Shown piece after piece: positions 6,442 to 16,395 of a stretch of 64,000 bases of DNA. Source of the stretch: Patescibacteria group bacterium (GTDB lineage: Bacteria > Patescibacteriota > Minisyncoccia > Phycocordibacterales > PALSA-1337). The position numbers and the translations under genes were made by a program. The number at the start of each line of letters is the position of its first letter. The stretch's first letter is position 1. The notes below the pieces were generated by a model. That model ran no database searches. It had not been told where the DNA came from and saw only the letters and a program-made list of their open reading frames with translations. The stretch covers positions 135,178-199,177 of the forward strand of contig JBBTRB010000004.1 of the NCBI GenBank assembly GCA_038065395.1. Reading direction: 5' to 3'.

Positions 6442-6513
6442 GGCCCTATCGTCTAATGGCTAGGACGGAGCCTTCTCAAGGCTTAAATCGGGGTTCGACT
6501 CCCCGTAGGGTCA
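6442..6513 (+). tRNA. tRNA-Glu (anticodon CUC)
   Basis: Manual cloverleaf fold: acceptor GGCCCTA/TAGGGTC, D-arm GTCT..GGAC, anticodon stem GAGCC/GGCTT with loop TTCTCAA, T-arm CGGGG-TTCGACT-CCCCG, discriminator A. No encoded CCA. Confidence 0.8.
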
Positions 6514-6884
6514 CAGGTTTTGAGCGAGCACAGCGAGTGAAAAAGCTGTGACCCTAAGCAAAGCGTCTGCACGCTTTGCGTCGGGGAGTCGAAAAGGTTC
6601 TCCCTTATTTTCGACACTCTGAAGCGTAGCGGAAGAGGGGAGAAAATGGGAAACCTGTACTGAAGCTGTAAGCTTCGACTCCCCGTAGGGTCACAAACAG
6701 ATATGAAACGGTTTTCCAGTGCCTGGAATCCTCGTTTACACTTATATTCCAACGTATCTTCTATGATGGTGAGTTCGGAAAAGATTAACTTGATGATTGC
6801 TTCCTTTTCTGTTGGTTTGGCGAAATCATAATATAAACAAACGTTTTTCAAGAGTTCGGAAAGTTTTACTATATCCTTCGTCAT
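6483..6884 (-). CDS. Hypothetical small protein. Only the N-terminal ~60 codons (6700..6884) lie in unique sequence; the rest of the ORF reads through the att-like repeats and the tRNA
   Basis: ORF only. No recognisable motif. Its 3' part overlaps the tRNA and repeats, so the true extent is doubtful. Confidence 0.2.
   Translation of the reverse strand: MTKDIVKLSELLKNVCLYYDFAKPTEKEAIIKLIFSELTIIEDTLEYKCKRGFQALENRFISVCDPTGSRSLQLQYRFPIFSPLPLRFRVSKIRENLFDSPTQSVQTLCLGSQLFHSLCSLKTCDPTGSRTPI
6494..6700. repeat. Cluster of reiterated tRNA-Glu 3'-end fragments (att-like scars)
   Basis: A direct 22-bp exact copy of the tRNA T-arm/acceptor is at 6674..6695. Inverted partial copies are at 6540..6552 and 6579..6597. 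A further partial direct copy lies at 12954..12965. Confidence 0.65.
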
Positions 6885-7247: not shown

Positions 7248-7628
7248 TTATTTTTGGTACAAACCGCGCACTTTATATGCCATATCTATAGCCGTAGCAC
7301 GCGTCGAGAAATCTGGCTCGGTAAAGGTAACTTTCACCCTGTTTTCACCCCTTTCAACCGTCAGTATTTGCCTTCCTCCTGATACAAAAATGGACTGAAG
7401 GTCTTCATCAGTAAGGAGGACTGGAAAATCCATTGTGGAGAGCTTCTGCGCCTCTAGAAGCTTCGTATGCACAGAAACTATCTTCTCATCAGAGATGAAC
7501 TCTTGGAGGTACTCCCGCCAGAATTTCGTATGCTTTATCTTCTGGGGGTTGCGGGCGTAGCTTTCGCTATATCCCGCCTCGCGCATTGCTTCAGCTAGAG
7601 AGCGCGGTTTGCCACCTTTTGCAACCAT
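7248..7628 (-). CDS. Small HTH protein resembling a phage terminase small subunit (Terminase_2-like). Probable mobile-element remnant
   Basis: N-terminal SLAEAMREAGYSESYARNPQKI resembles the AGYS...A HTH signature of terminase small subunits. ~126 aa. GC noticeably higher than neighbouring island genes. Confidence 0.35.
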   Translation of the reverse strand: MVAKGGKPRSLAEAMREAGYSESYARNPQKIKHTKFWREYLQEFISDEKIVSVHTKLLEAQKLSTMDFPVLLTDEDLQSIFVSGGRQILTVERGENRVKVTFTEPDFSTRATAIDMAYKVRGLYQK

Positions 7629-7745
7629 TTTTTCGATGGTTGCTTTTGCGCGTAGGTTTTCATGGCTTTTTTCATTCTTTCAATTATATCAATAAACCCT
7701 CAACAAAAAGGTATTTTTTTGGTATAATTTGAAAATCACATTTTT

Positions 7746-10700
7746 ATGAATTTTTCACTGAATTCCTATATAAAATACTGTTTAGGCTATCTTAGTCTCA
7801 CAAGACCTACAGGATTCAATAGAGGCACTTCAATAGACATAAAAATCCCTCAAGAATATTTCTCCTTAAGTAAACTTACGAACGGTGATACGGACGGGAG
7901 TTTGAGTGAGATTATCAACTTAGACTATTACTACAATACAGACCCGAAGGATGTTACTGAAGAAAACGAAGAAAAGTATAAAAAGGAAAAGGCACTTGCG
8001 CTACAGCTAGATGAAATATACAGCAAAGCGAAAAATGACACTTTCACAAAAGAAACCATATTGCGTTTCGGACGTTTTGATTTTGAAGTACTCGAAGAGC
8101 CTATAGTTGATACAGACGAAGAAGTTTTAGAAACCAAAAAAGACACACCAGTAGAAGAAGCAAAATTGGTATCAAAACAATTTTACCTTTTTTCATTGCC
8201 AGTAAGAATTGATAAGGAAAAAGACAAAAATAATATCGATAAATACACGATTATTCCAGTTGACTTTGAAGTTCGCCTAAACCTTCCTCCACTGTACGAA
8301 ATTTTTAGAACTTACAAAAAAGAAGATTTGGTGTACGAATTTTTAAACGAATATACCAAACTAGAAAGCGAAGGTGGTTTTTCTATTCCAATCCCTTCTG
8401 AAAAAATATTCTTAGACTTATGGCACATTCTTAAGGCAAAATTACGCCTGACTGAAGCAGTTTTTAATGAAAGTTCATTTACTCTTGATGACCTTCGATT
8501 AACTCTTGCCCCAAGAGCAAACTTCTTCTTGGTTGAAGATTTAACAAAGCTAGCGAAAGAAAAAGAGGAGCTTTTGGAAGGTACTTCGCTCTCGGGTTGG
8601 TTTTCTGAAGAAGGTCTAAACGTAAATTCGGATAGTTGTGAAGAAAAATCTCTATATTTTCCATTCCCATATGATAAGTTTCAAAGCGCAACCACTTCTC
8701 TTCTAGGTAATAAGGCTTCAATAATCCAAGGGCCACCAGGAACGGGAAAATCAGAGACTATTTCAAACATAATTTCTCATCTTGCTGTAAATAAAAACAA
8801 GGTTTTGTTCGTAAGTCAGAAACCCCAAGCTCTACGTGTTGTGAAGGATAAACTGAAAACCCTAGGCGTACCTCTTTTATTTGGATATATCCCGAGCGTT
8901 AAATTTGAGCAATCCCAGGATGAAGAGAGCGACACCATATCGTCGCAACTTGCAGCACTCGATACATATGGAGCTTATAAAGGTGTTGTAAAATCATCTT
9001 CTAATCTGAATAGCTTTACTCAAAATTCAGATGTTGTTTTCGATAAAAGAGATAAAATCATCTCCCTTGAAAGAGAGATATTTAGGCTTGAAGAACAGAA
9101 GCGTAACTACGATTTTCTTGACCAATTACCCTCAATAGATGAAGAGAGAATTATAACCGACCTCACGGAAGATTTATTTAGTGCTTATAAAAATATACTT
9201 CACAAAATATCGGCAAATAAAAATCTTATTGAGAATACCCACGACATATCAAAAAAATATAGTTTTGATAAAGAGCTATTTTGCGATAGTACTTTTTCAG
9301 ATTTACTCAAGACTGTATTGGCAGATGTTAAAAAGACTGGTTTCGATAGGTCATTTAAACTTGGAAGGTATATAAATAATCTTAGTAGAAAAATAAGACT
9401 CAAATCTCATCTAGGACAACTACCAAAAGAAATTTATGAAGAAATAGACAGCATATTAAAAAAGGACTCATCGCGGCATAGCGCAACAAAAGAATTGGAG
9501 CAGCTACTCGGTTTCTGTATTTATTGGGAAGCAATACAAGAAAATGAGAAGTTAGAAATATCTTTACAAGAAATCGAAAGTAACTTAAATCTGTCCAGAG
9601 ATGATTTTTCTACAATTTCTTCTTTTTTGAAAGAAAACTCTTTATCAGTATCGGAGCTTGTTGTTAAGCTTTCCGACCGCGCTCTCTTGAATCACAACCA
9701 GCAAAATTTTAGAGAAGATATTTCAACCCTTAAGAAAGAAGTTACGGGTAAAAATCAAATTACAAGGAAAGATATAGTGGCGCAATACCTATCTTCAATA
9801 ATCGAAGACAATATAAAAAATAATGTCTCACAGGTTAAAATATACAGAAAGCTTCAAGAGTTACAGAAAGCTTTTAAAAAATCAAAGAAAGCTTTCAAAA
9901 CTTTCGATAAGTTGAAAAATGACCCGACCAACTTTGAGACAATATTGAACATTGTTCCTGTCTGGATTATGGATTTAGACGATGCAAGTCGTCTTATTCC
10001 TTTAGTCTCAAACATGTTCGATTATGTCGTATTTGATGAAGCATCACAGTGCAATATTGCGTACACAATACCCTCAATGTATAGAGCGAAAAAGGCTGTA
10101 TTTGTTGGCGACCCAGAACAAATGAGAGACAGTACTGTAATGTTTAAATCGAACCAAGCATTTGACCAGCTCGCGAGCCGTTACAAAGTACCAGAGAGTC
10201 TACAAATAAAACCGACGGGTACAGCAGTGCAGTCTGTTTTGGATATTGCTAAAACAAGATTTGGAATACCCAAGATACTTCAATATCACTACCGTTCTCC
10301 GATGGAGTTGATTGGTTTTAGTAATAAGTATTTTTATGAACCGAAAGGCAAACGGCTTATTGCTTTGAATAACAAATATCTTACTTATAAGGATACAAAT
10401 CGGATAATGGTGCTTCATAATATCGAGTACAGCGGTATTGGAGAGATTGGCGATAATACAAACAATGCAGAGGCAGTGAAAGCACTGGAGCTTTATCTAG
10501 ATATGATTAAAGACCCAAAGTATGAAAATAAGAGTTTTGCCATACTCACGTTTTTTAATGACCAAGCAGAGCTAATCCGAAAGGTTTTTGAAGATAACAG
10601 GATTAAAGAAAGTGATAAATTAAAAATTGCTGTAATAGAAGGTATTCAGGGGGATGAAAAAGATATTGTTATATATTCTTTCGTTATTAGGGATGCCGCA

Positions 10701-11261
10701 CAAAAAAGACAGTATCGCCCTCTGACAGGAGAAACTGGAGATATGCAGGCCGATATTAACGCAGGTAGAGTAAACGTTGCTTTCTCAAGAGCAAAGCTTC
10801 AAGTTCACTGTATTATAAGTATGCCTATAGAAAAAATACCTTCAGGTATATGGATAAAGAAATACCTGGAATATGTGAGAGACAACGGTGAGGTATCTGC
10901 TTCCAGATTAACACTTCAAAAATTCGATAGTTACTTCGAGGAAGAATTCTATCATCTTCTTAAAAAGAAGCTTGGTAAGGGCTACACAATTCAAAACCAA
11001 GTCGAAAGTTGTGGCTTTAAAATTGATTTTGTTGCAACTAACACAAGTACTGGAAGACAGTTAGCAATTGAATGTGATGGGCCGACACACTTTAAAGACC
11101 ACATCGACGAGGCATATGGTATTTATGTTGATAGTGATATTCAGAGACAGAGGGTTTTGGAAAGTGCTGGTTGGACATTCTGTAGAATTGGATATTCCGA
11201 ATGGATTGAGAGCGAGGATAATAAAGAAACTATCGTTAAAAACATCAAACTACTGCTTTAA
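7746..11261 (+). CDS. SF1 (Upf1/DNA2-like) helicase fused to a C-terminal DUF559/Vsr-like (PD-(D/E)xK) endonuclease domain, with a ~330-aa N-terminal region. Hhe-like single-protein defence architecture
   Basis: Walker A IIQGPPGTGKSETI, Walker B/motif II YVVFDEASQC, motif VI RVNVAFSRAKLQVH. C-terminus GFKIDFVA...LAIECDGPTHF...QRQRVLESAGWTFCRIGYSEW matches the DUF559/Vsr-like fold signature. Confidence 0.75.
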   Translation: MNFSLNSYIKYCLGYLSLTRPTGFNRGTSIDIKIPQEYFSLSKLTNGDTDGSLSEIINLDYYYNTDPKDVTEENEEKYKKEKALALQLDEIYSKAKNDTFTKETILRFGRFDFEVLEEPIVDTDEEVLETKKDTPVEEAKLVSKQFYLFSLPVRIDKEKDKNNIDKYTIIPVDFEVRLNLPPLYEIFRTYKKEDLVYEFLNEYTKLESEGGFSIPIPSEKIFLDLWHILKAKLRLTEAVFNESSFTLDDLRLTLAPRANFFLVEDLTKLAKEKEELLEGTSLSGWFSEEGLNVNSDSCEEKSLYFPFPYDKFQSATTSLLGNKASIIQGPPGTGKSETISNIISHLAVNKNKVLFVSQKPQALRVVKDKLKTLGVPLLFGYIPSVKFEQSQDEESDTISSQLAALDTYGAYKGVVKSSSNLNSFTQNSDVVFDKRDKIISLEREIFRLEEQKRNYDFLDQLPSIDEERIITDLTEDLFSAYKNILHKISANKNLIENTHDISKKYSFDKELFCDSTFSDLLKTVLADVKKTGFDRSFKLGRYINNLSRKIRLKSHLGQLPKEIYEEIDSILKKDSSRHSATKELEQLLGFCIYWEAIQENEKLEISLQEIESNLNLSRDDFSTISSFLKENSLSVSELVVKLSDRALLNHNQQNFREDISTLKKEVTGKNQITRKDIVAQYLSSIIEDNIKNNVSQVKIYRKLQELQKAFKKSKKAFKTFDKLKNDPTNFETILNIVPVWIMDLDDASRLIPLVSNMFDYVVFDEASQCNIAYTIPSMYRAKKAVFVGDPEQMRDSTVMFKSNQAFDQLASRYKVPESLQIKPTGTAVQSVLDIAKTRFGIPKILQYHYRSPMELIGFSNKYFYEPKGKRLIALNNKYLTYKDTNRIMVLHNIEYSGIGEIGDNTNNAEAVKALELYLDMIKDPKYENKSFAILTFFNDQAELIRKVFEDNRIKESDKLKIAVIEGIQGDEKDIVIYSFVIRDAAQKRQYRPLTGETGDMQADINAGRVNVAFSRAKLQVHCIISMPIEKIPSGIWIKKYLEYVRDNGEVSASRLTLQKFDSYFEEEFYHLLKKKLGKGYTIQNQVESCGFKIDFVATNTSTGRQLAIECDGPTHFKDHIDEAYGIYVDSDIQRQRVLESAGWTFCRIGYSEWIESEDNKETIVKNIKLLL

Positions 11262-11275
11262 ATAATATCTTATTA

Positions 11276-12871
11276 TTGTATATGCCTCTCTTAACAAAAA
11301 CAGACTTTATTTTGTATCGTGAATGTCCAAATAATGTCTGGTTGAAAAGAAACAAACCAGAGGAGTACTGTAAGTTTGAGATTTCTGAATTTGAAAAATC
11401 ACTTGCTGTAATAGGTAATGATGTAGAAGAGTTGGCTCGAGGGATGTTTCCTTCGGGTTATCTTGTGGAGCGGCGAAGTGCTGGCGCACAAGAATTAACT
11501 CAAAAGTTAATTGCTGAAAAAACTCCTGTGATTTTCCAAGCAGTTTTTGCTACTGATAAATGTCTTGCGGCTACTGATGTTTTGCAATGGAATGATTCAG
11601 CCCAGAAATATGATATTTATGAAATAAAGATGTCATCTACGGAAGAGGATGACGAAGAAGAAGTGGAAGAAGGGAAGCCTAAGAAAGTTAATAAAAAGAA
11701 AGAACTCCAGTATGAATATGACCTCGCCTTTCAGGTAAATATTGCCGAGGCATGTGGTGTTCCACTACATAAAAAATACCTTGTTTGTTTGAACCGAGCA
11801 TATGTAAGGAATGGTGAGCTTGATTTTAGACCGAACCAGCTTTTCATTGTTGAGGATAAAACCGACGCAATCGAACTTATGAAAGACGTCGTTGGAGCGG
11901 AGATGTCTCAATCACAAAACTTCCTAGCGGCCACTGCGATGCCTCCCAGCCCTTGTCCTTGCTATTACAAAGGGCGCAACTCGCATTGTACGGCATTTAC
12001 ATACTTAAACCCGACCGTACCCGCATACAGTGTCCATGACTTGAATAGAATCGGAAATAGTAAGAAGTATCTAAAAGAATTACTCGATGAGGGCATTTTG
12101 GAGATTAGCGCTGTTCCTGTTGATGATAGACTTAAGCCAAAGCCCAAGAAAAGTACAGAGAAACCAAGTAAGCCGAAAAAGTTAAACCAAGTCTTAGTTC
12201 ACAAATCTCAAGAGCCTTTAATTGATATTGATTCGATAAAAAATGAACTTGGCGCACTCGTATTTCCACTTTATTTTCTCGATTATGAGACTTATCCGAC
12301 AGCAATTCCTCCTTATAATGGTTATCGACCATATCAGCAAATTGTCTTTCAGTATTCATTACACATCCTGAAAGATAAAGATTCCGAACCGATTTCTTTG
12401 GAATGTTTAATATTAGACGGTGAACCTTCTGAACGTATAGTTAAAAGCCTGCGTGAACATATTGGTGATACTGGAACTGTAATTTCTTGGTTTAAGACTT
12501 TCGAAAACTCTAGAAATCGTGAGCTGGCAACCCTAATACCGAGCCGTAGAGATTTTCTTCTCGGTCTTATTACTCGAACGTATGATTTGATGGATATAGT
12601 AGATGGTCAGCATTACGTACATCCTGGTTTTGAAGGCAGAGCATCAATTAAAAAAGTTTTGCCTGTTATTGCTCCACATCTATCTTATAAAAAACTATGT
12701 GTCCAGAGTGGTACAGATGCAATTGAAGCGTATAGGCAAATAACTAAAGGAGAGTTAACAGGTGAATTAGCCAAAGAAAAGGAGCTTCAAATGCTTGAAT
12801 ACTGCAAGTTGGATACCTACGCCATGTACGTTTTATGGAACTTCTTCAATAAGTTAGTGGATGAAAGTTAA
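11276..12871 (+). CDS. DUF2779-like protein with an N-terminal Cas4/RecB-like nuclease region and a Cys cluster
   Basis: N-terminus KTDFILYRECPNNVWL, central CPCYYKGRNSHC, C-terminal block YFLDYETYPTAIPPYNGYRPYQQIVFQYSLHIL typical of DUF2779. It starts 15 nt after the helicase stop, so is probably co-transcribed. Confidence 0.55.
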   Translation: MYMPLLTKTDFILYRECPNNVWLKRNKPEEYCKFEISEFEKSLAVIGNDVEELARGMFPSGYLVERRSAGAQELTQKLIAEKTPVIFQAVFATDKCLAATDVLQWNDSAQKYDIYEIKMSSTEEDDEEEVEEGKPKKVNKKKELQYEYDLAFQVNIAEACGVPLHKKYLVCLNRAYVRNGELDFRPNQLFIVEDKTDAIELMKDVVGAEMSQSQNFLAATAMPPSPCPCYYKGRNSHCTAFTYLNPTVPAYSVHDLNRIGNSKKYLKELLDEGILEISAVPVDDRLKPKPKKSTEKPSKPKKLNQVLVHKSQEPLIDIDSIKNELGALVFPLYFLDYETYPTAIPPYNGYRPYQQIVFQYSLHILKDKDSEPISLECLILDGEPSERIVKSLREHIGDTGTVISWFKTFENSRNRELATLIPSRRDFLLGLITRTYDLMDIVDGQHYVHPGFEGRASIKKVLPVIAPHLSYKKLCVQSGTDAIEAYRQITKGELTGELAKEKELQMLEYCKLDTYAMYVLWNFFNKLVDES

Positions 12872-13013
12872 TTTATTACAAGTATGGATTCTAGGCTTTT
12901 AATCGAGAAAGCGATAGAATCTCTATATTTAACAAGTTCGGAAAGCCACCCTATAGGGTCACAAAATTTGAATGAACTTATTTTTTTATAACTAATAAAA
13001 ATTTAAAATACAT

Positions 13014-13535
13014 ATGCTCAAAATAAATTTTTATCCTGAAAGTGATCTGAAAGACTTTGCTGAAGCTGTTACTATTTTTGAAAAAATGTGGCAAGAAGAA
13101 GGGGAACGAATCACTGATACGTGGGAACGGGTTACAGGATTGAAGTTCATTGAAACAGAAATAAATGCAGTTGTTGCTGATCTCAAGAGTTGCTCTCACC
13201 CACTTACGTTGAGGTATAGCAATGAATATGATTTCAAGAAATCTACATTGGTACATGAACTCGGTCATCGCATACTATACAGACGGGAAAGTAGTGCTGG
13301 GAACAAAACGACATTTGAGAGACATAAGTTTTTGTTTCTGGTTTTGTACGATGTTTTCTGTGAACTATATGGTCAAGAGTTTACTTATAAAGTTATAGCT
13401 TGGGATAGTAGTCTAGGAAAAGACAAAGGTAGGTCAATGTATGAAGATGCCTGGCAATGGGCATTACAATATAAGACAAAAGAAGAACGACAAAAAATCT
13501 ACAAGGAAATCTTGTCAGGAGAATATGTTTTCTAA
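13014..13535 (+). CDS. HExxH metallopeptidase-like protein, ImmA/IrrE (COG2856)-like
   Basis: Motif STLVHELGHRILY (HELGH) in a ~173-aa protein. AT-rich. Confidence 0.5.
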   Translation: MLKINFYPESDLKDFAEAVTIFEKMWQEEGERITDTWERVTGLKFIETEINAVVADLKSCSHPLTLRYSNEYDFKKSTLVHELGHRILYRRESSAGNKTTFERHKFLFLVLYDVFCELYGQEFTYKVIAWDSSLGKDKGRSMYEDAWQWALQYKTKEERQKIYKEILSGEYVF

Positions 13536-13594
13536 TTTTCGATCTAGTAACTATAAAGTTCCCAACTCTAACTTTAAGTAGTATACTAGTTGGA

Positions 13595-14215
13595 ATGGAT
13601 TCAAAACCTACTGTACGATATGCATTTATAGATGTTCAGAACACTGAAGGGACAGTCAGTCACCTTCTCGGTTTTGTTATTGATTGGCATAAGCTCTACC
13701 ATTACCTCAAAGAACAATGGAATTGCGAAAAGGTATTTTTCTATTCTGGTATTGACCAAGGTAATGAAGATAAAATCGACGAACATCTTGCTCTAAAGAA
13801 TCTCGGTTATGAGATGTCCATCAAACCGTATAAGATATATAAAAATTCCGACAAAATCATTAAAATCATGTGTTCAAAATGCGCGAATGAAATCGACTAT
13901 AAAATTGAAGGTGGTGTCCGATGGAAATCAAATTGTGATGCGGAGCTTTCTGTTGATGCAACAAATCTGGCAAAATCTGGTGCTGAATTTCTGATCTTTT
14001 CAGGAGACGGAGATTTTGAGTGTGTAATAAGGAATGCCGTAGAAAAGGGGGTGAAGGTATACGTGGTCTCCAGCGCACGGAAAGTAAAGACTGGCTTACG
14101 TTACTCTTCATCGAGATTCTCAACCAAACTACGCGAGCTCATTGCTGAGAAACGTGATCTGGTTATTTTCAAAGATATCAATGACTGGAAGATGAGGATC
14201 AAAAAAGATATTTAG
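13595..14215 (+). CDS. NYN/LabA-like (PIN-fold) nuclease-domain protein with an inserted Cys4 zinc-ribbon
   Basis: N-terminal YAFIDVQNT and FSGDGDF acidic motifs typical of NYN domains. Insert CSKCANEIDYKIEGGVRWKSNCD. Confidence 0.55.
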   Translation: MDSKPTVRYAFIDVQNTEGTVSHLLGFVIDWHKLYHYLKEQWNCEKVFFYSGIDQGNEDKIDEHLALKNLGYEMSIKPYKIYKNSDKIIKIMCSKCANEIDYKIEGGVRWKSNCDAELSVDATNLAKSGAEFLIFSGDGDFECVIRNAVEKGVKVYVVSSARKVKTGLRYSSSRFSTKLRELIAEKRDLVIFKDINDWKMRIKKDI

Positions 14216-14447: not shown

Positions 14448-15638
14448 ATGAAAAATCTATTACAGTCAGTCCTTGTTGGATTGATGTCTTTCGTCCCTTT
14501 GGCACACAGTGGTGACATCATCATAGAGTCACCCAACGGCGGCGAAGTCATCCGACGCAACCAGAACCTCGAAATCTTCTGGTTGAACCCTGTTCCTCTC
14601 GTCAATGCGATCTTTGTTGATCGATATGAAGACGGGGTGGTCGTCGAAACCTCTGAAATACCCCACTACGTCCATCCGAGACCCGAAGAAGGGCGCATGG
14701 GTATCAGTGTTCAGGCGAGTTACTATCTCCATCATCCGGGTACTTACAAAGTCCGGATCATCGGGACGCACAACAGTTTCAACGTCAGTGACGAAAGCGA
14801 TATGACATTCACTGTCATCGACGATGGGGTAGTCATCTGCAATCCGACCGACACAGGCTGGGCTCGTGGCGAAAGTCAGGAGTTCACCGTCAGTTGGAGC
14901 ATGATGCCTACGGGACGTCAGTATCGAGTCTATCTCTTCAACGTCTCAGAATGGGTCGGCGAAGGGTATGGCTTCGTACTCTATGAAGGCACGACGACTA
15001 CCGAGAGCGGGTCATTGACCTTCACCTCGCCGTATCCGTCGACCAACATGTCAGCCTATCCAGCATGGGAACTCAGCACGCCAGTCTCTGGTATGTATCG
15101 AGCATTCGTTCTGGATCTGGCGGACTATGGTCGGACATGGTCGGAGGACGAGATATTCCTCTCGGCCGAAGATGTCTTCATATCAGCAACACCGCGTCCG
15201 GCATTCACGATCAAGGAGGGCACAGACGACTGGTATCTCAAACTCAACGTCGATGCCAGCTTTTCTTCGGCAGATGTTCGCTCGCTCTCGATACCACTCA
15301 ATGTATGGATCGAAGATCCGGACACGGTGCTCGTAGTCACGCTCGAAGATGATAGTGGTCGGAGAGTCTCTCTGCCCAAGATCGTCCGGTTCGCCAGCCT
15401 GTATTCGGAGTTTACTCTGGCAACACTGCCACGAAGGTTCACCTTGGCTCAGGGACAATCCGAAAAACTCTTCGTGGTTGTCAAAGTCTTCCGAGGTGAA
15501 GGGAAGTTCGATATCGGACTCAACACTCTGGGCGAGGGTAGTGCCATCGGCTTCAAACGTCGGCCGCTCTCCTCCCACTATGTACACCAATGGGGGTACG
15601 GCGCTACGATCGTCAGTCGTCGCCCTGTCAGGAAGTAA
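14448..15638 (+). CDS. Secreted hypothetical protein (N-terminal signal peptide)
   Basis: MKNLLQSVLVGLMSFVPLAHS signal-like N-terminus. No recognised domain. Confidence 0.6.
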   Translation: MKNLLQSVLVGLMSFVPLAHSGDIIIESPNGGEVIRRNQNLEIFWLNPVPLVNAIFVDRYEDGVVVETSEIPHYVHPRPEEGRMGISVQASYYLHHPGTYKVRIIGTHNSFNVSDESDMTFTVIDDGVVICNPTDTGWARGESQEFTVSWSMMPTGRQYRVYLFNVSEWVGEGYGFVLYEGTTTTESGSLTFTSPYPSTNMSAYPAWELSTPVSGMYRAFVLDLADYGRTWSEDEIFLSAEDVFISATPRPAFTIKEGTDDWYLKLNVDASFSSADVRSLSIPLNVWIEDPDTVLVVTLEDDSGRRVSLPKIVRFASLYSEFTLATLPRRFTLAQGQSEKLFVVVKVFRGEGKFDIGLNTLGEGSAIGFKRRPLSSHYVHQWGYGATIVSRRPVRK

Positions 15639-15789
15639 CGCTTCGTCTAACACGCACCACATTCTCTTCGGAGGGTGTGGTGCTTTTTCTATACTGTACG
15701 TACATAGAGCTGAGATTGACTCACTGTATACTTTACTATATAAATCTGAGTGGACAGAGAAAACAACCATATTCATAGAAAGGTTTTGC

Positions 15790-16395
15790 ATGACTGTATG
15801 TATACAGCCGATAGTGATCGTAGGTCTCACCGCACTTCATGGAGCAGGCAAAGGTACGATGTCAGAACTTCTGATCTCTCAAGGATTCAGACATTTCTCG
15901 GCTCGCCATGATGTGCTGTGGCCTGAAGTTGATCGGCGCCAGTTACCTCGTGATCGAGATAGTTTGCATCTCATTGCCAATTCGTTTCGGCAAGAACGTG
16001 GCGCGGAGTACGTCACTCGTACGCTCGTCGAAAAAGCTCTGGATTCTGGCACGAATGCGGTAGTCGAGTCGTTCTATACCGTAAGAGAAATCGCTCATGC
16101 AAAAGCAGCAGCGGCGAGACTCAAAGTTACATTCCTCCTGGTGGCTGTCGAGGCTGATCGTGAGATTCGATATGCGCGTATCCAGGCTCGTGCATCTGAA
16201 ACAGATCGAGTTTCGTTCGAAGAATTCTGCGCAAAAGAACAGCGAGAAGTTGCTTCATCTGATCCGGCACAGCACAATCTACATGCATGTCGTGAACTGG
16301 CTGATCTGGTGGTACTGAATAACGGAACAGTTGATCAGTTTCATCGGCACACGAAGGCACGTTTGGAACCGTTCAATATTCATCTGCAGGTGTAA
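15790..16395 (+). CDS. P-loop NTPase, nucleoside/nucleotide-kinase-like
   Basis: Walker A GLTALHGAGKGT near the N-terminus, ~200 aa. The longer ORF from 15349 overlaps the upstream gene out of frame and is probably an artefact. Confidence 0.55.
   Translation: MTVCIQPIVIVGLTALHGAGKGTMSELLISQGFRHFSARHDVLWPEVDRRQLPRDRDSLHLIANSFRQERGAEYVTRTLVEKALDSGTNAVVESFYTVREIAHAKAAAARLKVTFLLVAVEADREIRYARIQARASETDRVSFEEFCAKEQREVASSDPAQHNLHACRELADLVVLNNGTVDQFHRHTKARLEPFNIHLQV

Follow-up and report, generated by a model that had tools for sequence, protein, structure and literature searches.

Hhe (NF042953; PADLOC PDLC02194) is a single-gene defence system that combines a DUF4011 domain, a helicase and a Vsr-type endonuclease in one protein. 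ProA (NF058533) and the PADLOC candidate PDC-S37 belong to the same superfamily; literature searches for PDC-S37, ProA and Prometheus returned no description of those proteins. The DUF2779 family has been analysed in silico earlier and was assigned a Cas4-like N-terminus and a DEDDy C-terminus (PMC3985635; PMC13621843); it represents family F.17 of the RNase H-like proteins (PMC3985635), and its C-terminus matches MrfB, 8UN9 (PMC13621843). CRISPR-Cas is absent from most Patescibacteria, which are thought to use simple nucleic-acid-cutting defences (PMC12455944). We analysed a stretch of 64,000 nucleotides (nt), hereafter the window, from a groundwater Patescibacteria genome, in which a gene for a helicase-nuclease fusion is followed directly by a DUF2779 gene. 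The original prediction, made from the sequence of the window, interpreted the two as an operon and possibly as a two-gene variant of Hhe. Our analysis revealed that the helicase and DUF2779 genes are inherited independently and are not one unit. In our view there is about an even chance that the helicase-nuclease is an autonomous single-gene cassette of the defence type and that DUF2779 is a facultative, exchangeable accessory nuclease. What is new here is a lineage-specific helicase variant within a known superfamily together with its DUF2779 association, the latter being most worth following.

Domain organization of the two proteins

Both predicted open reading frames (ORFs) are present where they had been placed, according to the ORF listing and to identical proteins in public metagenome-assembled genomes (MAGs) of Patescibacteria. 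Identical copies of both proteins are recorded there on contigs of at most 761 kb, including a Hainich groundwater assembly, which indicates real genes and not chance ORFs. The helicase motifs GPPGTGKS (residues 329–336), VVFDEASQC (761–769) and VNVAFSRAK (1009–1017) were found, and the other quoted motifs, LAIECDGPTHF, RVLESAGWTFCRI, KTDFILYRECPNNVWL and YFLDYETYPTAIPPYNGYRPYQQIVFQYSLH, were located as well. The genes had been described as tightly coupled across a gap of 15 nt. The close spacing stands, but the start of the DUF2779 gene moves to the ATG at 11282, so that the spacer measures 20 nt and not 14–15 nt; it contains no terminator-like site. The two genes are probably co-transcribed.

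The domain reading of both proteins was borne out by Pfam. The helicase protein matches AAA_11 at residues 316–793 (E = 7.5e-17) and AAA_12 at residues 842–1022 (2.6e-19), and its C-terminus (1058–1167) matches MTES_1575 (PF18741, 2.6e-17) and DUF559 (PF04480, 3e-05), which supports the proposed Hhe-like architecture of a helicase joined to a Vsr-type nuclease. Across 17 homologues the Walker A and motif II residues are invariant, as are the Vsr-like residues D1094, E1109, D1111, H1115, R1134 and Q1135. The profile of these 17 homologues matches Upf1-like superfamily 1 (SF1) helicases of the PDB, namely IGHMBP2, Sen1, Upf1/Nam7 and DNA2.

Membership in Hhe proper, as opposed to a similar architecture, was not supported. 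PADLOC gave PDC-S37 at 1e-67 (227 bits, residues 543–1161 covered) and Hhe at 8e-36; among the NCBIfam models, ProA reached 2.8e-70 (237 bits with a cut-off of 1500, covering residues 470–1161 only) and Hhe 9.6e-44 (149 bits with a cut-off of 2000). All three profiles align to the C-terminal half of the protein only; the region aligned by PDC-S37 and ProA comprises the nuclease and the latter half of the helicase core, and the N-terminal ~470 residues are unmatched. Since these matches lie far under the cut-offs, are restricted to the C-terminal half, and the N-terminus is without Pfam DUF4011, the protein is placed outside Hhe. The helicase family is large, with 853 clusters at E ≤ 0.001, and the best 120 of these are nearly all full-length, share 45–85% identity and carry source names of many candidate phyla. 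The family is essentially confined to Patescibacteria, and the window helicase is a compact, distinct, Patescibacteria-specific branch of the Hhe/ProA/PDC-S37 superfamily.

The N-terminal domain was compared with DUF4011 by several routes. Pfam DUF4011 (PF13195) matched neither the whole helicase nor residues 1–321 at E ≤ 1, and these residues gave no Pfam match of any kind at that threshold, whereas the positive controls, the helicases of loci L021, L035, L036, L041 and L047, were matched at 1e-25 to 1e-49. The AlphaFold2 (AF2) model of this region, with a predicted local distance difference test score (pLDDT) of 73, matched no solved structure in the PDB, and a search for the domain in IMG/VR contigs gave no match. 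An hhalign comparison that included the pre-P-loop motif aligned the region with DUF4011 over 155 columns at 92% probability, a value that depends on that generic motif. Without the motif, and against Pfam-verified DUF4011 helicases only, residues 141–186 aligned weakly over 43 columns (53% probability, E = 1.4e-4; reversed control, E = 0.38). By sequence, residues 141–186 thus weakly resemble the DUF4011 core motif, and the domain may act as a sensor or regulator.

The partner protein matches Pfam DUF2779 (PF11074) over residues 333–457 with E = 8.5e-35 and 120.2 bits, against a gathering score of 23.3, and across the full model (1–126). The Cas4-type residues, the four cysteines included, are conserved in alignments of 16 and of 53 homologues, and D334, E336, D435, Y507 and D511 of the DEDDy site are invariant in both sets. 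Foldseek of the AF2 model (pLDDT 85) matched the Cas4-like domain to Cas4 (4r5q, E = 1.5e-4, probability 1.00) and also to MGME1 and RecE; the fold-level match of the C-terminal domain to solved DEDD nucleases was weak. None of the PADLOC and NCBIfam anti-phage models matches this protein. Based on alignments and model, it is predicted to be a four-cysteine Cas4-like PD-(D/E)xK nuclease joined to a DEDDy exonuclease, with all catalytic residues kept.

Association of the helicase and DUF2779 genes

We collected 73 full-length loci of the helicase family from genome and metagenome contigs, forming 58 clusters at 95% identity, 43 of which extend 1.6 kb or more past the helicase on the downstream side (L057, L149 and L150 are one locus and were counted once). 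In seven of the 43 clusters, i.e., this window and six others, the next gene downstream on the same strand is DUF2779, and the spacers at those other loci are comparably short. DUF2779 adjoins the helicase divergently in L015, and a distant DUF2779-like ORF follows it in L077. The other 36 clusters (~84%) are without DUF2779 downstream, including the closest relatives of the window helicase (L003, L004 and L054, 77–81% identity). An HMM (hidden Markov model) search found no DUF2779 beside the distant helicases (~28% identity) from outside Patescibacteria (L016–L053).

Where both genes are present, their identities do not follow each other. Window and L057 share 72% identity in the helicase and 39% in DUF2779, and the corresponding values for window and L101 are 46% and 77%. 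The helicases of L101 and L096/L099 are 85–89% identical, and their DUF2779 proteins 37–39%. By tblastx, homology between loci is confined to each ORF separately, beginning and ending at its boundaries, and helicases of 89% identity occur both with DUF2779 (L096) and without it (L100, L102). The discordant identities and the breaks at ORF boundaries indicate that helicase and DUF2779 are inherited separately; the unit in which the helicase moves is a single ORF. Loci L134–L137 were at one point taken as a single cassette of a helix-turn-helix (HTH) gene, helicase and DUF2779 placed in different contexts; blastn revealed near-identical strains that diverge 160–280 nt past DUF2779, so they give no evidence for cassette mobility.

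The adjacency itself is clearly non-random and recurs with other helicases of the Hhe superfamily, one of which carries a genuine DUF4011. Patescibacteria genomes hold about a thousand genes, and for genomes of that size the adjacency is far too frequent for chance. A parallel case came from the helicase side: three of the 43 clusters carry an unrelated Cas4-like PDDEXK_1 nuclease in the position of DUF2779. This protein of 377–379 amino acids (aa) is encoded directly downstream of the helicase in L112 (5658–6797), L124 (4138–5274) and L130 (4285–5418), and its C-terminal part weakly matches a Mu Gam/Gp157-like (TOTE) domain. The helicase family is here paired with a Cas4-like protein for a second time, independently of DUF2779. 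The helicase-DUF2779 adjacency is specific, as it involves at least three helicase-Vsr-type subfamilies and has this parallel, yet it is facultative and modular.

The original prediction had named a housekeeping role with conserved synteny as the outcome that would speak against defence; the context of the helicase is that of defence and mobile elements. In 13 loci the helicase is directly preceded, on its own strand, by a small XRE-family HTH gene (e.g., L099, 1035–1292; L070, 3345–3605); the window has a divergent 126-aa ORF in its place. Large serine recombinases occur near the helicase in eight loci, a tyrosine integrase lies directly upstream in the closest relatives, and excisionase-like HTH genes and Fic are further frequent neighbours. 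No conserved housekeeping synteny was found around the helicase-family loci. Together, these neighbours and the lack of conserved synteny show that the helicase is cargo of integrative elements. In one subclade (L131–L133; e.g., L131, 5134–8525) the helicase is followed by an SbcD-like phosphoesterase (355 aa) and a 775-aa SMC/JetC/LmuB-like ATPase, which may form a separate neighbouring defence system.

Genomic context of DUF2779 genes

The neighbourhoods were also examined from the DUF2779 side, in nine look-ups of close relatives (66–78% identity) and in 16 IMG/VR contigs. A helicase of the Hhe superfamily stands just upstream in three of the nine. The first (L134) has 1517 aa, AAA_11/12, a weak MTES_1575 match and a Zn ribbon, and is preceded by an XRE HTH gene; the second (L167) has 1645 aa and a genuine DUF4011, and matches PDC-S37 with 904 bits (5.7e-272) and ProA with 862 bits; the third is a 1513-aa helicase-DUF559 protein separated from DUF2779 by a DUF2130 gene. 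A DUF2130 protein is encoded directly upstream of DUF2779 in two unrelated contexts (L169, 3774–4997; L151, 6791–7987), one of them the interval between helicase and DUF2779 just mentioned, and may be a third recurrent component. In three further look-ups the upstream gene encodes another nuclease or candidate defence protein: one is FokI-like and preceded by a type I restriction-modification (RM) system, one is PDC-S46 (1e-225) and one is an HNH protein. The island around one look-up also holds Fic, Bro-N, RadC and an RM methylase, and two look-ups have no such partner. In L140 and L169, DUF2779 is situated between defence genes and a recombinase, inside islands. The genes directly before DUF2779 in the IMG/VR contigs include GmrSD (twice), PIF1, UvrD, GIY-YIG/DUF4357, a TnsA-like gene, a STAND-like NTPase and DUF2130. 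No account of DUF2779 standing repeatedly behind DNA-targeting genes of the defence type was found in the searchable literature, in PADLOC or in NCBIfam. The position of DUF2779 behind enzymes that cut or unwind DNA leads to a testable hypothesis, namely that it processes the DNA ends left by its upstream partner.

An integrative island at tRNA-Glu

The helicase-nuclease is the main cargo of a degenerate integrative island that adjoins tRNA-Glu in the window (Table 1). Upstream of the island lies the dcw cluster (mraZ-rsmH-ftsL-ftsI-murE), followed by the tRNA gene. Copies of the tRNA 3′ end delimit an att-like bounded segment of 6.3 kb that contains the helicase, DUF2779 and the divergent 126-aa ORF, and no integrase. 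The window contains four occurrences of the 10-mer TAGGGTCACA (0.09 expected), each of them at an island edge. The G+C content (GC) of the patch is 0.32–0.40, compared with 0.49–0.53 on either flank, and that of DUF2779 itself ~0.38 compared with ~0.50.

Right after tRNA-Glu, positions 6516–6695 contain an inverted copy of the tRNA 3′ end (TGTGACCCTA ... CGGGGAGTCGAA) that is interrupted by a 26-nt insert with a short palindrome (GCAAAGCG-TCTGCA-CGCTTTGC); the exact 22-nt direct copy then follows. Such an arrangement resembles a scar left by several rounds of integration and excision at this tRNA gene.

Table 1. Features of the helicase-DUF2779 locus and its island (positions in the window)
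Feature	Position	Strand	Details
tRNA-Glu(CUC)	6442..6514	+	ARAGORN; 3′ end acts as island attachment-site sequence
tRNA 3′-end sequence of 22 nt, TTCGACTCCCCGTAGGGTCACA	6494..6515	+	Reference copy in the repeat search
Exact direct repeat of the tRNA 3′ end	6674..6695	+	Left segment edge; 2 exact copies, 0 expected by chance
ORF divergent from the helicase, inside the island	7248..7628	-	126 aa; seen in this genome only
Best sigma-70-like promoter match on the + strand	7700..7728	+	TCAACA-17-TATAAT with TG, 18 nt 5′ of the helicase ATG; weak evidence
Helicase-nuclease gene	7746..11261	+	ATG start, 1171 aa
Family-specific N-terminal domain	7746..8708	+	aa 1–321
Upf1-like SF1 helicase core	8691..10811	+	aa 316–1022; ~350-aa insertion between motifs Ia and II
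C-terminal Vsr-like PD-(D/E)xK nuclease domain (MTES_1575/DUF559)	10917..11246	+	aa 1058–1167
DUF2779 gene, ORF of the original prediction	11276..12871	+	TTG start, 531 aa
DUF2779 gene (putative dual nuclease), corrected start	11282..12871	+	ATG start, 529 aa; from homologue alignment and public gene calls
Cas4-like PD-(D/E)xK domain	11282..12061	+	C15, D99, E114-x-K116, Q151, C225-x-C227...C236
DEDDy 3′-5′ exonuclease (RNase H-like) domain	12254..12868	+	D334-x-E336, D435, Y507-x3-D511
Degenerate third copy of the tRNA 3′ end	12942..12963	+	Probable right segment edge; 15/22, last 10 nt exact; 71 nt past the DUF2779 stop
173-aa protein and 206-aa NYN-domain (LabA-like) protein	13014..14215	+	Low-GC patch, beyond the repeat-bounded segment

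The 126-aa ORF has no match in Pfam, PHROGs, PADLOC or NCBIfam; its resemblance to a small-terminase-like HTH protein had been noted by eye and is backed by none of these libraries. The idea, also formed by eye, that an ORF at 6700–6880 on the minus strand is the C-terminal remnant of a serine recombinase was dropped, as tblastn with the recombinases neighbouring other family members gave nothing significant. Beyond the repeat-bounded segment, the 173-aa ORF has no match in any library, and no homologues of it or of the NYN gene were found beside the other helicase and DUF2779 loci examined; both were seen only in this genome and may form a second small cargo unit, e.g., a toxin or RNase module. 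Just outside the island, a 348-aa ORF (15349–16395) carries a P-loop kinase-like domain (AAA_18/AAA_33); its weak NCBIfam match to an anti-phage dCTP deaminase model is far under the cut-off and probably not meaningful.

Proposed function and alternative explanations

If the helicase-nuclease is a single-gene cassette against invading DNA, it would load on the foreign DNA and translocate with ATP by means of its SF1B-type, Upf1-like motor, and its Vsr-like domain would nick or cut the invader. DUF2779 would then enter at the nicks or ends left by the upstream enzyme, and its Cas4-like Fe-S 5′ nuclease and DEDDy 3′-5′ exonuclease could degrade or resect both strands, either finishing off the target or processing damaged DNA of the host itself. 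The anti-phage function, all enzymatic activities, the polarity of the helicase, the order of action and the physical or functional coupling of the two proteins are what we infer in this scheme.

Several observations weigh against it. The scores of the window helicase amount to 7–16% of the curated Hhe and ProA cut-offs, so that the transfer of a defence function is an extrapolation. A scan of the region for promoters and terminators gave no excess over background, with promoter-like sites not above those of shuffled sequences. Genomes of Patescibacteria are compact, and short intergenic spacers are normal in them. The samples are modest (43 helicase loci, and nine plus 16 DUF2779 loci), and the IMG/VR contigs may include non-viral islands. 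The remaining difficulties concern DUF2779 itself. In at least one lineage the order rpoC-dnaG-rpoD-[variable gene]-DUF2779-dsbA-rplU is syntenic (L141, L143), and DUF2779 has diverged there like its flanks (72–75% nucleotide identity), i.e., it behaves like a vertically inherited core gene. Furthermore, its Mycoplasma homologue MMSYN1_0389 is reported to be quasi-essential in JCVI-syn3.0 (PMC13621843).

These last points belong to the main rival explanation, in which DUF2779 serves genome-reduced bacteria as a housekeeping nuclease for repair or replication, single-gene defence cassettes, the window helicase among them, are exchanged by recombination at a landing pad directly upstream of it, and the adjacency reflects an insertion preference and not cooperation. 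We consider it possible, though on the unlikely side; it fits the synteny and the quasi-essentiality as well as an accessory role does. In the two syntenic Patescibacteria genomes of L141 (3785–5998) and L143 (5348–6004), the slot between rpoD and DUF2779 is occupied by a full-length PDC-S46 candidate defence gene (GC 0.25, compared with 0.34–0.38) or by an HNH endonuclease, and appears to be a one-gene variable position within an otherwise conserved housekeeping region. The inserted gene of deviant GC in front of a constant DUF2779-dsbA-rplU block speaks for the landing pad, as do homology that breaks exactly at ORF boundaries and discordant helicase and DUF2779 identities such as those of L101 and L096/L099. 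DUF2779 also turned up in a Mycoplasma bovis transposon-mutant screen. However, the window DUF2779 has island-like GC and lies inside the segment bounded by tRNA repeats, and the DUF2779 genes of L140 and L169 stand between defence genes and a recombinase. The upstream genes are overwhelmingly DNA-cutting or unwinding enzymes and not random defence types, and the helicase family also pairs with the unrelated Cas4-like nuclease. Discordant trees are in turn compatible with cooperation, as true defence operons typically shuffle their modules.

A bolder reading, possible though on the unlikely side, regards DUF2779 as a portable, partner-agnostic "clean-up" dual exonuclease that would be recruited in cis by DNA-cutting immune genes of Patescibacteria and of their mobile elements, and would be needed in Hhe-type pairs for full immunity or tolerance of self-damage. 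Its observed partners include no fewer than three subfamilies of Hhe-type helicase-nucleases, besides GmrSD, the type I RM system with its FokI-like gene, HNH and PDC-S46. If true, DUF2779 would represent a new class of shared accessory module, and the family would gain its first functional handle.

An obligate two-component variant of Hhe, in which the helicase-Vsr protein and DUF2779 function only together, comes closest to the original prediction of a dedicated two-gene system; it fits the data poorly, and we regard it as improbable. The tight same-strand spacing in the window and in the six other clusters, the presence of DUF2779 behind two other Hhe-type helicase subfamilies, and the location of both genes in one repeat-bounded island segment are in its favour. 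Against it stand the 36 clusters without DUF2779, which include the closest relatives and helicases of 89% identity, the absence of co-inheritance with its discordant identities and ORF-boundary breaks, and the many other partners behind which DUF2779 is found, or its occurrence with none. The weakest explanation, a housekeeping machine for DNA end resection and recombinational repair in which the pair acts as a split Dna2, AddAB or MrfAB in a genome without the classical enzymes, likewise fits poorly and is very improbable: the logic of Dna2 is shared (an Fe-S RecB-like nuclease with an Upf1-like helicase, and matches to DNA2 chains), the DUF2779 C-terminus resembles MrfB (PMC13621843), and both families occur widely in Patescibacteria and are well conserved there, but the helicase lacks conserved synteny, has recombinases and integrases as neighbours, lies in a low-GC island in the window, is missing at the corresponding position of near relatives and has anti-phage families as its best profile matches, and a Vsr-type endonuclease lies outside the known resection machines.

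Comparison with known systems

With Hhe, the window helicase shares the module order of N-terminal domain, SF1 helicase and MTES_1575/Vsr-like nuclease. It differs in its length (1171 aa in contrast to ~1700–2300 aa in the sampled, verified DUF4011 proteins), in lacking both a DUF3320 tail and a Pfam DUF4011 domain, and in being followed by DUF2779. PDC-S37 and ProA provide its best-scoring profiles, with partial coverage and far below the cut-off, and their closer relative L167 is likewise encoded directly upstream of DUF2779. As a compact, lineage-specific branch of this superfamily that is mobile as a single ORF, the helicase-nuclease would enlarge the immune repertoire of Patescibacteria.

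MMSYN1_0389 of JCVI-syn3.0 keeps two of the Cas4-type cysteines (PMC13621843), whereas the Patescibacteria DUF2779 proteins keep all four. In comparison with Dna2, AddAB and MrfAB, the same predicted activities are distributed here over two genes, i.e., an SF1 helicase, a Cas4/AddB-type Fe-S nuclease and a DEDD exonuclease, the latter being DEDDh in those machines. No orthology is detectable beyond the generic domains, and the pair described here has an additional Vsr-type endonuclease, a location in a mobile island and a facultative pairing.

In Pseudomonas, genomic islands form defence hot spots flanked by conserved core genes (PMC12629846). Variable defence genes beside a conserved anchor, with cargo exchanged between lineages, are common to those hot spots and to the DUF2779 loci. 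In contrast to the Pseudomonas islands, the anchor is here itself a predicted nuclease that travels in islands and in contigs classed as viral, and nearly all of its partners are enzymes that cut or unwind DNA.

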